Source: Planctomycetota bacterium (GTDB taxonomy: Bacteria; Planctomycetota; JAJSAM01; JAJVHW01). Taken from it: a DNA stretch of 64,000 nucleotides. A model generated the notes under the pieces. It was not told where the DNA came from. It did not search any database and saw nothing but the letters and a program-made list of their open reading frames with translations. A program made the position numbers and the translations under genes. The stretch is taken from positions 672,001-736,000 of the forward strand of contig CBDFJG010000002.1 in NCBI GenBank assembly GCA_965248445.1, in the 5' to 3' direction. Within the stretch, counting starts at the first letter, position 1. Each line of letters opens with the position of its first letter. Of this stretch, positions 48,248-54,816 are shown piece by piece.

Positions 48248-49231
48248 ATGCGTACCTACCAAGCGGCGGCGTTCGCCATCATCGCAGGCTGTGCCGTGCT
48301 GTTCGGCGGAGCCACGGAGACCTCACGCGCCTCGACCGGCGACCTGAGCAAGCAGCAGGTCAAGCAGCTCGAGAAGGAGTTCAACCAGATCGTGAAGCAG
48401 CACAAGCAGTCGGGGAACAACAATTTCAAGGTGTTCAAACAGGGCATCGGGAACATCAACAAGGACGTCAAGTCGGGGACTGCGGATCCGTTCCAGATCT
48501 TCTTCGACACGACGAACGACCTGGACTTCATCTTCGACGGCAGCCTGTCGTCCACGCGCAACGCGATCGCGGGGATCGAGGGCGTGTCGTCGAGCTTCTA
48601 CGCCGCGAACACCGGCGTGCCGGACTCGATCCCCGAACTCAGTGGCGCTCCCGGGAGTCTCATCGACGACGCCGTCGGGAGCCTGAACGCAAACAACGGC
48701 AAGCTGCTCACCAAGATCCGCAAGCTCATCTCGAAGCTCGAGAAGGCTGCGTGCAAGGAGGACATTCCGCCCTTCACCGGACTGCGCGGCATCCCGGAGT
48801 TCCAGGCCCCGCACGTGGAGCGCACCGGCTTCTTCGGCAGCGGCATGACCGAGAACCGCGCGAATATCATCTTCACGACCTCCGGTGGGCAGACCTCGAG
48901 CCGCGTTTTCTCCGTGCTGGGCTACTTCGACTTCGATCCCCTCGACAACGACGAGACGTGGACCGGACTGTTCGATCCGGACGGCACCGAGCTCGACAGG
49001 CAAGAGCTGACGCCGTCGACGAACGGGGTGTTCCGCGGAGGCTTCTCCACAAGCAGTTCCGGGACCAAGAACATCGGGGTGGACATCTTCGATCCCGACG
49101 ACGACAGCCTGATCTTCGCGGACGGCTTCGAGTCCGGGGACACCTCGGCCTGGACCAACGAGCAGGGGCCGATCAGACCCGTTCAGGCTCGATCTCGTCC
49201 TGCCCCGTGTGGGCTGCGCAGACTGGGCTAG
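48248..49231 (+). CDS. secreted hypothetical protein with IFADGFESGDTSAW motif
   Basis: Signal peptide; GGAGG-like RBS; motif near the C-terminus. Confidence 0.7.
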   Translation: MRTYQAAAFAIIAGCAVLFGGATETSRASTGDLSKQQVKQLEKEFNQIVKQHKQSGNNNFKVFKQGIGNINKDVKSGTADPFQIFFDTTNDLDFIFDGSLSSTRNAIAGIEGVSSSFYAANTGVPDSIPELSGAPGSLIDDAVGSLNANNGKLLTKIRKLISKLEKAACKEDIPPFTGLRGIPEFQAPHVERTGFFGSGMTENRANIIFTTSGGQTSSRVFSVLGYFDFDPLDNDETWTGLFDPDGTELDRQELTPSTNGVFRGGFSTSSSGTKNIGVDIFDPDDDSLIFADGFESGDTSAWTNEQGPIRPVQARSRPAPCGLRRLG

Positions 49232-49298
49232 CATTCTTGGACGAGGAAGGGCCTCCGATCCGGGGACGCACGCTGCGTGGGATAGGGAGGATGGACCG

Positions 49299-50954
49299 AT
49301 GAAGGTCGTCAAGTCGCTCACAGGATTCGTCCTGTCAACCGGGCTCGTGCTGCTGCTGTCTGCGCCGGGCCTCTCGCATGGTGAAGAAGAGCACCGGTGC
49401 ATCGAGGACGCCTCGCTGCATCGACCGGAGGTCGGGGCGCCGCTGCCAGAAGCGGAGGGTGGCGTCGTCGTCAGCATCTCGGAGACCTGCGAGTTCGTGA
49501 AGGTGATCGTTCACGAGGTCAGCAATGAGGTCGCGCTGAACGTGACGCTTCAGCGCGAGGATCAGGTGTTCGAGATGGGCGCCGTGCCCGGGTCCGAGGA
49601 AGGCCCGCGCGTGCTGGTGCGCTACAGCTGCGAAGGCGACACGCTGCCAGGCGAGGTCGAGTCCGTCGAGGCGTTCTTCGGTTTCGCGGTCCTCGTCAAG
49701 AATGCGGAGGGCCAGGTCGTCCTGCGCGGCGAGGTGCCGACCCTCGAGTGCGAAGAAGAAGAAGAGGGCGATGGCGAGGGTGACGGCGAAGGCGACGGCG
49801 AGGATGAAGGTGACGGCGAGCACGAGGAGCCCGAGACCGAGATGGGCCACTTCGAACTCGAGCGCCCCGAAGGCGGACTCGAGCCGGAGGCCAACGGCGG
49901 CATCGCGATCTGGAAGCGCGGCGACCGCGAGAAGTTCGTGCTCGAACTCTGCGGCTTCGAACCGGAGTCCCGCGTCCTGATCTACATCAGCGACGGTGAA
50001 GAGGAGTTCGCCCTGGTAGACGACCTCGGCATCGACGGCGAAGGATGTGCACGCTTCTTCCGCGACACCGGCGAAGAGCAAGAGCTCCCGCTCGGACTGT
50101 CGCTCGAGCAGTTGGAAGAGCGCCGCCTGCAGATCCGTGACGGCGAGGGCAACGTGCTGCTGGTCGGCCGAGTGCCGGAACTCGAGGACGAGAAGCACGA
50201 GGAGACCGAGAAGTCCCGCGGGCCGCTCACGCGTCCGGAGAACGCTCCGAACCGCGAGGCCGAAGGCGCCGTCGGCGTTTGGCGCCGCGGCGAGCGCGAA
50301 AAGTTCGACGTCGAGGTGGGCGGTTTCGCCCCCGAGACGGGACTGCTTCTCTTCATCGCGAACGCCGAGAGCGAGTTCGTCTTGGTGGACGACCTGCGCA
50401 CCGGCGAGCGCGGCGGCGCTGAGATCTTCCGCATGAACTTCGAGGGCGGCGAGTTGCCGCTCGGCGTGGACTCGCTCGATGAACTGGCCGGCCGCGACAT
50501 CCAGATCCGCAATCTGGATGAGCAGGTCGTGCTGGTCGGCGAGGTCCCCGCGTTCCGCGCGGATGACGACGGTGATGTGCGCGAGCGTGAGACCCACCGC
50601 GACGAGGTCACCGGCGCCAAGATCGGAGTGCGGGTGCTCATCAAGGTCTCCAAGGGCCGCGAGAAGCTCTCGTTCGAGATGAAGCACCTGCCCAAGGGCT
50701 TCTCGATCAACAAGCGCCGCCGCGGCGGCAGCAGGGAACAGGTCAGCCTGTTTATCGCGGACGAGCTGGGCACGATGACGGAGGTCGGCAGCACGAGAGT
50801 CCGCCGCCGCCGCACGGCGAAGCTCCGCTGGAACAGCAGGAAGGGCCACACGCTGCCCCTCGGCGTGACATCGATCCGCGACCTCTCGGGTCGCGCATAC
50901 GAAGTGAGAATCGGCGACACCGCCGTTGCCGAGGGGTTCATCCCATTCTTCTAG
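49299..50954 (+). CDS. secreted acidic protein with four tandem ~120-aa repeats
   Basis: GGAGG RBS, signal peptide, repeated LPLG..S...L.GR...IR...G.V.L.G.VP; EGDG linker. Confidence 0.8.
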   Translation: MKVVKSLTGFVLSTGLVLLLSAPGLSHGEEEHRCIEDASLHRPEVGAPLPEAEGGVVVSISETCEFVKVIVHEVSNEVALNVTLQREDQVFEMGAVPGSEEGPRVLVRYSCEGDTLPGEVESVEAFFGFAVLVKNAEGQVVLRGEVPTLECEEEEEGDGEGDGEGDGEDEGDGEHEEPETEMGHFELERPEGGLEPEANGGIAIWKRGDREKFVLELCGFEPESRVLIYISDGEEEFALVDDLGIDGEGCARFFRDTGEEQELPLGLSLEQLEERRLQIRDGEGNVLLVGRVPELEDEKHEETEKSRGPLTRPENAPNREAEGAVGVWRRGEREKFDVEVGGFAPETGLLLFIANAESEFVLVDDLRTGERGGAEIFRMNFEGGELPLGVDSLDELAGRDIQIRNLDEQVVLVGEVPAFRADDDGDVRERETHRDEVTGAKIGVRVLIKVSKGREKLSFEMKHLPKGFSINKRRRGGSREQVSLFIADELGTMTEVGSTRVRRRRTAKLRWNSRKGHTLPLGVTSIRDLSGRAYEVRIGDTAVAEGFIPFF

Positions 50955-51196
50955 GCCGCTGTCACGACACGCAACCCGGGCAGGGCGTCAACGGACGCCC
51001 GGCCCGCTCCCATTCCGCGCAGCACGCCCCGGAGACCGGGCCGCGCTGCCGGTGCGCGCGTTGTGCTAGGCTGAGATGCGGGAGGCAACACGCGCGCTCC
51101 ACCGGCGAAGCTGCGCCGGGTTCGGGGAGGCGTGCGGCGTGTTGCGGAAGTGTGCGTCCGCGTTCCGTTGAACAGCGCGGACGGTAGGAGGAAGCG

Positions 51197-53545
51197 ATGC
51201 GCCGAATCTTGATCGCCGGTGTGCTGGGTCTGTCCGCTCTGCTCGGTCTCGAACGCGACGCGTTCGCGTGAGGACCGGTCCCCGCACCACCGTGCTCAGT
51301 GGTGATCTGGTGGACGCCTGTCCTCGCGAAGTCCTTCGTCAACAAGAAGAGCGGCGACCTCACGCTGAAGATCGACTACGCGTCGTTCATCGGGTGGAAC
51401 GAGGTGTGCCCCCTCCCGGACTTCGCAGCGATCCGGGTCAACGTGACGGCGACCCCGGTCGGAGGCGGGACGCCGTTCGTAGTCGGGGAGCAGACGTTCT
51501 CACCCACACCGCCGTCGACGCCGGGTCGCCAGCCCGACGCATCGGTCGACTACGTGATCGCCGCAGGAACGCTCTCGTTCGGGGTGGACTACGTGATCGA
51601 GATCATCGGTACGTGCGAGGTGCGGTTCCCAGGCACCGGCCCGGGGACCGGCCTGTACGCCGACACGGCGACGGTCGAGAGCTGCATCGTGCAGCCGACG
51701 CCGCTGGACGAGAACACGCCCCGCCTGGGCATCTGCTGCCTCACGAAGGAAGACGGGCTGGTGTCGATCGCGGAGCGCGGTGACCAGCGCGCGACGTACT
51801 ACCTCATCAGCAACAACGATCCGAAGCACGCGGTCACCATCGATCTCGGGAGCAGCGGTTTCCAGGTAGCGAATCTGCCGGACGGCTTCTCGGTCGCGGA
51901 CGTCCAGGCCGCGTACGACGCGGGTGCGGCGTCGATCTCGAGTCCGGTCGAGGGCGCCGACACCTTCGTCGGCTTCTTCGAGGGAGACGTCCCGGCAAAC
52001 GGCATCGTGCCGAACCCGGCGGATCCAGGGGCCGTCGATCCGCTCACGATCACGCAGGAGGGCCTCGTCCTCGCACCGTTCGAGTGCCGCATGATCTGCA
52101 TCGTCACCCGCAGCAACGGCATGTGCGCCGACGGCTCGTGCTCTCGACGCAACCTCAAGGTCACCGGTGAGTTCGCAGACGGCTCGTCGGCTCTCGCGTG
52201 CGCGATCTCGGCGCACGCCGTCGAGGCCGGCGCGCCGCGACAGGCGCCGCGCTGCCTCTACACAGACACGATCAAGGTCGGTCCGGACGATCAGGTGCTG
52301 TTCTCCCGGGGTCACTTCGGCAACCGGTCGGGGCCGATCCCGTTCGCCGAGACTCACTTCGGCGGGAACGTCACGCCGGCGTTCCAGCCGTTCCCCGGTG
52401 AAAGCTCCACCGAGCTGCGAGGCGCCAACTTCCCCTCGCCGGAGCCGTTCCCTGATCAGGCGTCGGACACGATCGCCGAGGAGCCGTTCCTGGTGGACTC
52501 GTTCTTCGACATCTCGTACGAGATCGAATTCTTCGGTGGCGGCCTCGTCGGCCCGCCGACGCGAAATCGCACGACGGTCTTTGGGATCGGTCAGCTCCAG
52601 CAGGGCGTGCCGGTCGACGTCCCGGTGGTGCTTGTTCAACCCGCGGTGCCTGTGGGGCCGCAGTTCATCGTCGACTCGTTCTTCGACGTCGGGACGGGCA
52701 ACGTCCTGATCCTCGATGCCAGCACCCCCGAGCCGCAGCAGGTCTACAACGGTCCAATCAGCGAGCTCCAGCAGTTCGCAAACGAGTCTTCGCTGGTCAA
52801 CATCCCGCCCGGCACGTGCCGGACGATCTCGAAGTCCGGCAACACGGCTCAGAAGTACAGCGTGCTCGCGCCACACAACCGCACGTTCGTCCTGGGCAAG
52901 AAGGACCGACCGAGCTTCTTCGACGGAGGCATCCCGGTCGTGAATGGGCAGGACACCCAGCCATCGCCGTGGGACGCCGTTCGTGAGGGGATCGGTGTGC
53001 AGCCGCGGTCCCCGAGCGGCACGGACACAGTTCCGATCGAACTCGTCGCACTCGATCTGCAGAGCGTCGATCCGATCGACGTGGACATCTTCGGCAAGAA
53101 GAACAGGGTGCGGGACTTCCACTCGTGGGTCTGCGTCTCGTGTCCCGGCGGCCTCAACATCGCCGACTCGCCGTTCCTCGTACGCGTCGTGAACCTGCCC
53201 GGTAAGCCGGGCATCAAGAAGGACTTCAAGAAGGCGAAGTCGTTCAAGAAGGTCCCGGTCGGCAACACGACGACCGGCATGATCACACTCCGGAACAAGG
53301 GCAAGGGACCGGTGTCGTTCCGACCGCCGGCCACCCTTCCGGCGCCGTTCAGCTGGGTCAGCGACGTCTCGGGGTTCCACACCGTCTACCCCAAGGGCCA
53401 GCTCCAGCTCGAGATCGCCTACACGCCCGTTGGCGAAGACGGAAAAACCAAGGGCAAGGACAAGGTCACCGCCGAGGTGCTGCGGAGCGACAAGGAGAAG
53501 CCTCTCAAGCTGAAGCTGAAGGGCGACTGGATCGACGCTCCCTAG
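51197..53545 (+). CDS. putative secreted Cys-rich selenoprotein (UGA at codon 25), 782 aa, C-terminal Ig-like domain
   Basis: AGGAGG RBS, ATG 51197 and a 24-aa signal peptide in frame with ORF 51299..53545 across TGA 51269-71. Confidence 0.65.
51272..51315 (+). promoter_or_regulatory. bacterial SECIS-like hairpin
   Basis: CACCAC-CGTGCTCA-GTGGTG (51285-51304); lower stem GTCC/GGAC. Confidence 0.45.
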
Positions 53546-53561
53546 ACGATCGAAGCAACGC

Positions 53562-53591
53562 GACGGCCGCGCGCTCCGGTGCGCGGCCGTC
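53562..53591. terminator. hairpin between convergent genes
   Basis: GACGGCCGCGC-N8-GCGCGGCCGTC, an 11-bp perfect stem. Confidence 0.6.
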
Positions 53592-53613
53592 TCGATTCCC
53601 TCAAGCGCCGAGA

Positions 53614-54816
53614 TCAGGCGCCGAACACGCTCTCGGGTGTCTCGGCGAATCCGTCGAGCAGCGCTGCCATGACGTGTTCGGTGACCTCGTCGACCGCCGT
53701 CTCGAGGTCGTCGTTCACGACGACCGGCACGTCGAGCCGGTCGGCTTCCGACATGAGGAACGTCTGCACGCCCCAGATCTCGTCGAAGTGGTCGAGGTAG
53801 CGCTTTGCGCGGCGATCGGGCGTCTCCTTGCCGCGGCCCTTGATGCGGCGGCGCAGTTCCTTCGGGCTGAGCACACCGAGCAACGCGCGGACGACAATCG
53901 GATCGTCCGCACCGCCGGTCTGCAAGTCCGCGAGCAACTCGCTCTGCAACGCCGGGTGTAGGTGCACACCCTCGAGGATCACACTGACCCGTTCCCGTGC
54001 CGCACGCCCGACAATCGCCTCGGCAGCGACGGAGATCAGTCGGGACTGAGTCAGGTACCCCTCGATCAACAACTCGGAACCGGACTGTGCACCGGGTTGT
54101 GGCAACGCGGTGTGCGCCTCGAACGAGGACACGTGCAACGCGGGCGCGAGCCGGTCGGGGACGATCGTCCGCATCACCTCCCGCAGCATGTCCGTGGACT
54201 GTGTGCGGACGACGTCCATGCGGTGCGCAATTCGTGTGGCGACCGTGCTCTTGCCCGTGCCCGTCGAGCCGCCGATCACGAGAACGAGCGGGCGGTCACC
54301 GTGCCGGAACGCCTCCCACGCGAGGTAGCGCCGTGCGGCGGCGGCACCGAGCCGTTCCTCGAGGAGACCGTGTGTGCGGCTCTTGATGTGCGCGAGGTCG
54401 ACTTCGTTCACGCCCTCGCGGACCAGGCGATCCCGAAGCTCGGTGGCCAGGTCCTCGGACTGCTCGGCACCGATTCCGCACGCGATCAGGCTCTCCCGGT
54501 GGCGTCCGCGTGAGTAACGCTGCGTCGATGCGTCGGACAGCCGGATCTCGAGGCTCCGGATGGGCTGGGCCTTCCGGTAGCTCTCGACGACGTCCGATGC
54601 GACGTCCTGAGCCTCCTCTAGGCGCCCGGCCACCAGCTCCCTGAGGGCGCCCGAATCGATCTCCGTGCGATCCGTCAGCTCCTCGCGCACCTCCGACGCG
54701 ACGCGGTACGCCACCTCGAAGGGCAGCCCGGCCGCCTGTAGAGAGCGGGTCAGGATGCCACGCAGAAACGGCACGCGCGCACCGGTCCCCAGGTCGATGA
54801 CGGCGGCTCTAGCCAC
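53614..54816 (-). CDS. 2-phosphoglycerate-kinase-like P-loop kinase with two ATP-cone-like domains
   Basis: PFLRGILTRSL, YSRGRHRESL; GGSTGTGKST, STDMLREVMR, LHVSSF, ILEGVH. Confidence 0.8.
   Translation of the reverse strand: MARAAVIDLGTGARVPFLRGILTRSLQAAGLPFEVAYRVASEVREELTDRTEIDSGALRELVAGRLEEAQDVASDVVESYRKAQPIRSLEIRLSDASTQRYSRGRHRESLIACGIGAEQSEDLATELRDRLVREGVNEVDLAHIKSRTHGLLEERLGAAAARRYLAWEAFRHGDRPLVLVIGGSTGTGKSTVATRIAHRMDVVRTQSTDMLREVMRTIVPDRLAPALHVSSFEAHTALPQPGAQSGSELLIEGYLTQSRLISVAAEAIVGRAARERVSVILEGVHLHPALQSELLADLQTGGADDPIVVRALLGVLSPKELRRRIKGRGKETPDRRAKRYLDHFDEIWGVQTFLMSEADRLDVPVVVNDDLETAVDEVTEHVMAALLDGFAETPESVFGA

Follow-up and report, generated by a model that had tools for sequence, protein, structure and literature searches.

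Bacterial selenoproteins of the SelB/SECIS type are marked by an in-frame UGA, a consensus-fitting hairpin within the open reading frame (ORF), homologs with Cys, and a full selenocysteine (Sec) machinery, all of which are shared by the gene described here. The published consensus for the bacterial SECIS element comprises a loop of 3-9 nt, a G in the first two loop positions, and a spacing of 16-37 nt (PMC13188914). In addition, exported bacterial proteins combining a signal peptide with Sec or Cys motifs have been described as SaoB, SaoX, and SaoC (10.1101/2022.07.06.499078), and a functionally fixed Cys at the mature +1 position is known from TIMP (PMC2871463), in which it is bonded to a distant Cys. 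The present gene lies in a 64,000-nt window (the whole stretch of DNA that was analyzed), and its TGA directly follows the codons of a predicted signal peptide.

Gene layout and the TGA behind the leader

The target gene (51197-53545, plus strand) encodes 782 residues when the TGA is read through (protein P0001), ending at TAG 53543-45, and its features are as follows.

51186..51191, plus strand: Shine-Dalgarno sequence AGGAGG, read in the sequence 5 nt upstream of ATG 51197
51197..53545, plus strand: whole gene, 782 codons and TAG, with coding statistics typical of the genome
51197..51268, plus strand: signal peptide of 24 codons ending A-F-A, predicted to be of the signal peptidase I type
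51269..51271, plus strand: TGA, likely Sec25 and predicted mature +1 residue (Cys column in homologs; identical in four run assemblies)
51269..52261, plus strand: unnamed family core, residues 25 to ~355, with conserved Cys33, 71, 163, 310, 315, and 335
51285..51304, plus strand: SECIS-like hairpin with a 6-bp stem and the loop CGUGCUCA, from folding and comparison with reference sites
52124..52126, plus strand: Cys310, predicted bonding partner of Sec25 from its co-loss with Cys+1
53222..53524, plus strand: C-terminal Ig-like domain (HYDIN/ASH/choice-of-anchor D type), below the curated cut-off

The AGGAGG, ATG 51197, the leader, TGA 51269-71, and the in-frame 748-aa ORF without a signal peptide of its own, all reported in the preliminary description, were each read in the sequence. 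The standard ORF starts at GTG 51299 and equals, without the leader, database protein P0002 (748 aa), which is the only form in which the target is entered. The dicodon score (0.31) and GC3 (0.88) of the gene matched the genome medians (0.32 and 0.87, respectively) closely. With its n, h, and c regions and a terminal A-x-A, the leader resembles a signal peptidase I substrate, and cleavage is predicted after Ala24, which would expose Sec at +1 of a 758-residue protein. The lipoprotein (signal peptidase II) class was rejected for the target, in which the leader ends A-F-A and no lipobox occurs. The product had also been called Cys-rich, which holds to a moderate degree, with 16 Cys/Sec per 758 mature residues (2.1% vs. 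0.93% genome-wide), 13 of which fall within residues 25-353. The C-terminal Ig-like domain was matched by PF22544 (E 3.6e-5, 24.4 bits vs. the cut-off of 25.5) and NF012200 (E 0.0014).

Contigs assembled from four runs of a single sample, which is probably the source, were compared with 50900-53800 and showed 0 differences, excluding an error peculiar to a single assembly; the comparison was made on contigs rather than reads, and one sample does not provide independent sampling. The sequencing error considered in the preliminary description was thus addressed at the contig level, and the reading of TGA 51269-71 as an assembly error was rejected, the TGA recurring in four assemblies of the sample.

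The promoter search for the target gene returned no match. An 11-bp GC-rich inverted repeat without a T run is situated at 53562-53591, between the target stop and the convergent gene 53614-54816, and is a possible bidirectional terminator. Upstream (48248-50954, plus strand), two genes encode apparently exported products, one with an IFADGFESG motif and one Glu-rich, which had no significant Pfam family and were absent beside the homologs of the target. Among the eight window neighbors, none recurred beside homologs, barring one Na/Pi transporter match.

Homologs and the residue at mature +1

Searching 1.84 billion representatives yielded 190 clusters (150 of them listed); 151 homologs were examined, 28 without a leader being left out and 123 reaching back over it. 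Among the matches listed, the column of the TGA was Cys in 115 of the 123 leader-bearing homologs, and not the Trp, Arg, Gly, or Ser that the preliminary description had associated with a simple nonsense mutation. The typical homolog N-terminus consists of A-x-A followed by C-x-G-x4/5-C, and the family Cys is kept exactly at +1 despite leaders of very different length, with extra residues ahead of it in at least two homologs (L109 and L110). Named homolog loci belong to Planctomycetota, Acidobacteriota, Bacteroidota relatives, Verrucomicrobia, and Proteobacteria, and the closest of them, L010, suggests Planctomycetota as the phylum of the target genome.

The leaders of the Cys+1 homologs end in an AxA-type motif in 109/115 and in a strict lipobox in 7/115, and residue -2 is bulky or charged in 73/115. 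The tails of 46 homologs included T9SS sorting (12), TSP3 (8), and dockerin (2) types. The AxA ends, rare lipoboxes, and T9SS/TSP3/dockerin tails together suggest that the homologs are likely exported and non-lipidated and carry a free N-terminal Cys. These data bear on the alternative that translation truly begins at GTG 51299 and yields a 748-aa protein lacking a signal peptide, or that Cys+1 is a lipoprotein anchor with a lipidated Sec in the target. Lipoproteins are usually recognized by a Cys at +1 (lipobox pattern [LVI][ASTVI][GAS]C), and the GTG was chosen by gene callers for both P0002 and the related P0003; however, the lipobox and -2 counts argue against an anchor, and the GTG has no Shine-Dalgarno sequence, sits in the hairpin stem, and as a start would cost the protein its leader and two near-invariant Cys, making this alternative highly improbable.

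The shared core (residues ~25-355) harbors the motifs RGDQ..YY..NND and RSxGMCxDGSC and had no Pfam, NCBIfam, or significant PDB sequence match, including none to thioredoxin, in agreement with its earlier designation as a non-thioredoxin protein. Analysis of homolog P0005 in the ESM Atlas yielded CARDB/DUF11-like (Ig-like) matches of 0.76-0.77, within the range of shuffled proteins, and no match for the middle region, and the Ig-like (CARDB/DUF11) resemblance of its core is regarded as a weak lead.

The TGA itself was detected at 0 of 40 distinct homolog loci with a visible N-terminus, 38 of which had Cys and 2 another residue (a count leaving out the target's own L008/L038, the duplicates L010/L039/L047, the spurious L046, and the truncated L052). 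Searches of 61, 401, 301, 42, and 301 overlapping genomes revealed no stop in any match except that of the target genome (G000), contig scans for further copies gave 0, 26, and at least 7 loci, and word-index protein searches returned P0002-P0004 and P0154 only. The nearest relative with DNA sequence, G005 (same family, locus L009), has TGC in this column; it possesses selB and TGA in three companion families, yet Cys in the target family.

P0003, known from protein only, shares 69% identity with the target, is intact at 750 aa, has its called start exactly where P0002 does, and retains the second Val of the hairpin stem (see below). In a tree built by a quick method (46 rows, residues 36-400), P0001 and P0003 formed a clade (SH-aLRT 100) whose sister was the Cys form P0005, with P0003 0.37 changes per site away. 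The same start, the second Val, and this clade would be most simply explained by a shared upstream TGA and SECIS, in which case Sec would have arisen once in the P0001/P0003 ancestor, with both genes intact since, while a contig edge or a start mis-call could also be the source of the P0003 truncation. The two proteins additionally share C-V-S-C at 646-649, which is absent as a pair in five other close homologs.

The hairpin, the Sec machinery, and other TGA genes

As previously described, a hairpin with the arms CACCAC (51285-90) and GTGGTG (51299-304) carries a loop, CGTGCTCA (51291-98), starting 19 nt after the UGA, and it was present in both the MFE and centroid structures. Its stability alone was unremarkable (z -0.01 for 51272-51315 and z -2.28 for 51269-51330). 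The Cys33 codon is located within the loop, and the 3' arm corresponds to Val35-Val36 (GTG GTG), containing the mis-called GTG start. The published consensus (PMC13188914) was passed by the target and 27/29 reference sites, as well as by 243/600 ordinary TGA stops, indicating poor discrimination at 69% GC. A narrower rule (at least 5 stem pairs, a codon-to-loop distance of 14-27 nt, and GU within the first three loop bases), set post hoc with the hairpins already seen, was passed by the target, by 19 of the 29 reference selenoprotein sites (chosen by eye from protein motifs, without family-scan confirmation), and by 85/1835 (4.6%) ordinary TGA stops. Moreover, it was passed by 260/3000 synonymous recodings of the target peptide and by 2/31 Cys homologs (L017 being dropped for its wrong frame, and 7 loci, the target's own among them, having no call). 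In the target, the loop opens with CGUG, which is more frequent than any other start in the reference genes (6/27); its length is 8 nt, compared with 3-6 nt in the 19 rule-passing references. The Rfam scan of the target gave three chance matches only and no SECIS. The SECIS prediction suggested in the preliminary description was thus supported by the published consensus (40% background) and by the post hoc rule, but not by Rfam.

Stronger evidence for a SECIS comes from the departure of Val35-Val36 from the family. The column of Val35 is K/R/Q in 111/124 homologs and Val in 1, and that of Val36 is T/S in 115/124 and Val in 0, suggesting that the protein sequence was adapted to the needs of the RNA stem; a fresh nonsense mutation would not account for this. 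This concerns directly the alternative that the conserved Cys was recently lost by a TGC to TGA mutation, leaving a young pseudogene with a chance hairpin. Such a loss takes a single change, fits the lack of TGA at the other 40 loci, and is compatible with the ~5-9% of control sites that pass the narrower hairpin rule; a look-alike also exists in the same genome, namely L059 (G000:C3:1286471, minus strand), which has a TGA at its leader end, no hairpin, and Pro, Ser, and Arg in three relatives, and which is likely a true nonsense mutation. However, L059 lacks both a Cys homolog and a SECIS, whereas the target has both, so that these two tests separate them. Moreover, the Val-Val change would have to precede the mutation by chance, and P0003, despite its distance, is intact and cut at the same place. 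Recent loss of the Cys codon therefore appears improbable.

Genes for Sec incorporation, whose absence would have spoken against the initial proposal, were all found in the target genome, including selA, selB, selD (with one TGA of its own), and a tRNA-Sec scoring over the cut-off, and selB was present in 16/17 genomes of the class. A genome scan for TGA with coding sequence on both sides detected 29 other motif-picked sites, mostly of the thioredoxin-type UxxC, among which are sites that we take from their motifs to be of the AhpD and SelW types; a SelD-type site is also present. At least 29 motif-picked TGA sites, together with the genes carrying Sec at the tip, amount to a large selenoproteome for a planctomycete. 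Overall, it is very probable from these comparisons that TGA 51269-71 is recoded as Sec, i.e., that this is a real selenoprotein gene using the standard SelB/SECIS route.

Three further families in the target genome have a TGA at or next to the predicted mature start. Family A (L055; G000:C4:226645-226902, minus strand; TGA at C4:226830) encodes a small exported membrane protein with A-F-A followed by U-P-N-C and was without a match in the NCBIfam scan. Among its relatives (L064-L076), TGA occurs at +1, in the context AxA-U-P-x-C, in 9 genomes of two families (9/15 loci) and Cys in 2 others, with a GGUC loop 17 nt downstream of the TGA in all 9 genomes, and family A is a clearer case of Sec at +1 than the target. 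Family B (L057; G000:C4:680511-681347, plus strand; TGA at C4:680592) is exported, with A-E-A-G-U-C behind the leader, and has a paralog at C1:334643 (minus strand, L058); G-U-C was found at 10/15 loci and G-U-U at one (L091), along with one P-T-U-P paralog and a Cys paralog (L090). The locus counts for these two families left out L077 and L088 (spurious or mis-framed). Family C (L056; G000:C4:1662829-1663479, plus strand; TGA at C4:1662919) is exported, with S-S-A-G-U-G-P-P-F-A-C and a SECIS-like hairpin, had no match in the NCBIfam scan, and contains one TGA somewhere inside each of 12/12 matches in the class. Since families A, B, and C keep the TGA across relatives, Sec at or next to the mature start appears to be a conserved habit of the class.

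Three other genes with an in-frame TGA were observed in the same genome. L060 (G000:C3:877035, plus strand) is a candidate selenoprotein gene: it encodes a large, presumably FG-GAP/ASPIC-like protein containing D-G-U-S-C-V-W, and its SECIS-like hairpin is strong (loop CGUGUC, 20 nt). L062 (G000:C4:812149, plus strand) is likewise a candidate: its product is a small membrane protein containing A-T-A-G-T-U-V-V-R, a hairpin with a GGU loop lies at 18 nt, and the NCBIfam scan gave no match. L061 (G000:C3:666870, minus strand) has a TGA without a SECIS; the frame is GspF/PilC-like, and the TGA may reflect either a gene boundary or a nonsense mutation.

Potential role of Sec25 and comparison with known systems

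In 117 full-length rows, all six homologs without Cys+1 also lack Cys310, whereas Cys310 is kept in 109/111 with Cys+1 (phi 0.86), although kin among the rows are not independent and the significance is overstated. The six retain the family core, Cys33, and Cys71, and the five of them included in the tree fall in about four separate places. Other apparent Cys pairs in the family are c85/c134 (phi 0.75) and C163/C335 (phi 0.52). The co-loss suggests that Sec25 is likely bonded to Cys310, which is most likely its partner rather than the nearby Cys33, and we consider it probable that a Sec25-Cys310 selenenylsulfide takes the place of a Cys+1/Cys310 disulfide inferred for the family.

According to the explanation that we favor, SelB would recognize the hairpin downstream of the UGA and insert Sec, signal peptidase I would cut after Ala24 and leave Sec as the first residue, and Sec25 would bond to Cys310 of the RSxGMCxDGSC loop. 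Rather than simply stapling the fold together, the resulting Se-S bond would provide a cell-surface protein with an exposed site that can be switched by redox, and Cys315 may act as a resolving thiol. The Sec form would have arisen from Cys in a Sec-rich planctomycete lineage, its SECIS being gained partly through the change of two conserved residues to Val-Val, and without selenium, translation would stop after 24 residues. This whole account, i.e., an exported selenoprotein with Sec at +1, the Cys310 bond, and a redox-switchable surface site, is held with somewhat better than even confidence, and the redox role and any substrate are its least supported parts.

The same selenoprotein could instead carry a purely structural Sec25-Cys310 bond, stapling the N-terminus to a second domain for faster or stabler oxidative folding without turnover. 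This is consistent with the many conserved Cys in apparent pairs, the anchoring/adhesin-type tails (TSP3 8, T9SS 12, and dockerin 2 of 46), and the absence of a detected redox fold. However, six homologs keep the core without the pair, the cost of a SECIS and two amino-acid changes is easier to explain for a reactive residue, and Sec mostly replaces redox-active Cys (PMC13188914), rendering a structural staple unlikely. An exposed redox-switchable site is favored over it because the Cys pair is dispensable in six members and costly to convert.

Furthermore, Sec+1 could act like the N-terminal Cys of TIMP, being bonded to a distant Cys while its free amine (and Se) coordinates either a metal or a target enzyme's zinc. 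In TIMP, the N-terminal Cys takes the place of the water bound to zinc, and inhibition is lost when a single residue is added (PMC2871463). In the target family, the Cys is fixed exactly at +1 although leader length varies widely. Against this stand the lack of likeness to any solved structure in the PDB sequence search, the lack of a conserved protease or metal gene adjoining the homologs, the C-x7/8-C spacing, and the extra residues before Cys in L109 and L110, and a TIMP-like role is accordingly considered quite improbable. The bond in TIMP is Cys1-Cys70, and no sequence similarity was found between TIMP and the target family.

More speculatively, and with less than even confidence, this lineage may use signal peptidase to unmask Sec as a reactive tip on at least four unrelated exported families in one genome. 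The target would then belong to an ancient, widespread family of Cys+1 surface proteins and have been converted to Sec by rewriting two conserved residues, and its free amino-selenol, cycling with Cys310/Cys315, would constitute a new kind of site, not based on the thioredoxin fold, for redox chemistry or metal capture outside the cell.

With regard to catalogued selenoproteins, none of the 119 families in Table 1 of PMC13188914 matched the target by name, model, or motif, bearing out for that table the initial view that no known family was recognizable; four of these families have no motif given there and were set apart from the target by Pfam/NCBIfam scans only. The target differs from the catalogued families in its U-x7-C at the mature N-terminus, its length of 758 aa, and its lack of a thioredoxin match, and is likewise distinct from the thioredoxin-fold selenoproteins with UxxC/CxxU motifs, no such fold being matched in Pfam or NCBIfam. 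A Sec at mature +1 was not found in this table, in keyword passages of related selenoprotein papers, or in literature searches, and the terms "Signal peptide" and "Planctomyce" are absent from the main texts of PMC13188914, deep-Sep (PMC12013277), and BSepDB (PMC13326102). The model of the Omp28-related selenoprotein NF045500 (GOS_C) matched 10/46 homologs but not P0001; in P0017 and P0024, the match covers residues 857-954, a repeat tail also matched by the thrombospondin-3 model and outside the core.

Automatic gene calls truncate genes of this kind and leave out the signal peptide, as in P0002 and P0003, and secreted selenoproteins are thus probably undercounted. A Cys-to-Sec swap usually marks a reactive residue and here points to the working end of a nameless family of ~190 clusters, and the target provides an example, open to direct testing, of how a SECIS arises at the expense of the protein sequence. 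The Sec of SaoB, SaoX, and SaoC is either located internally (Sec72 of SaoB) or C-terminal, and these proteins have ABC-binding folds or are lipoproteins (10.1101/2022.07.06.499078), whereas in the unrelated family of the target it would stand at +1 behind A-x-A. Judged by its sequence, the target is likely a new non-thioredoxin, exported selenoprotein family using the standard mechanism, with Sec predicted at +1; if so, a large exported family outside the thioredoxin fold, with Sec at the mature +1 position, would join the selenoprotein catalogue.
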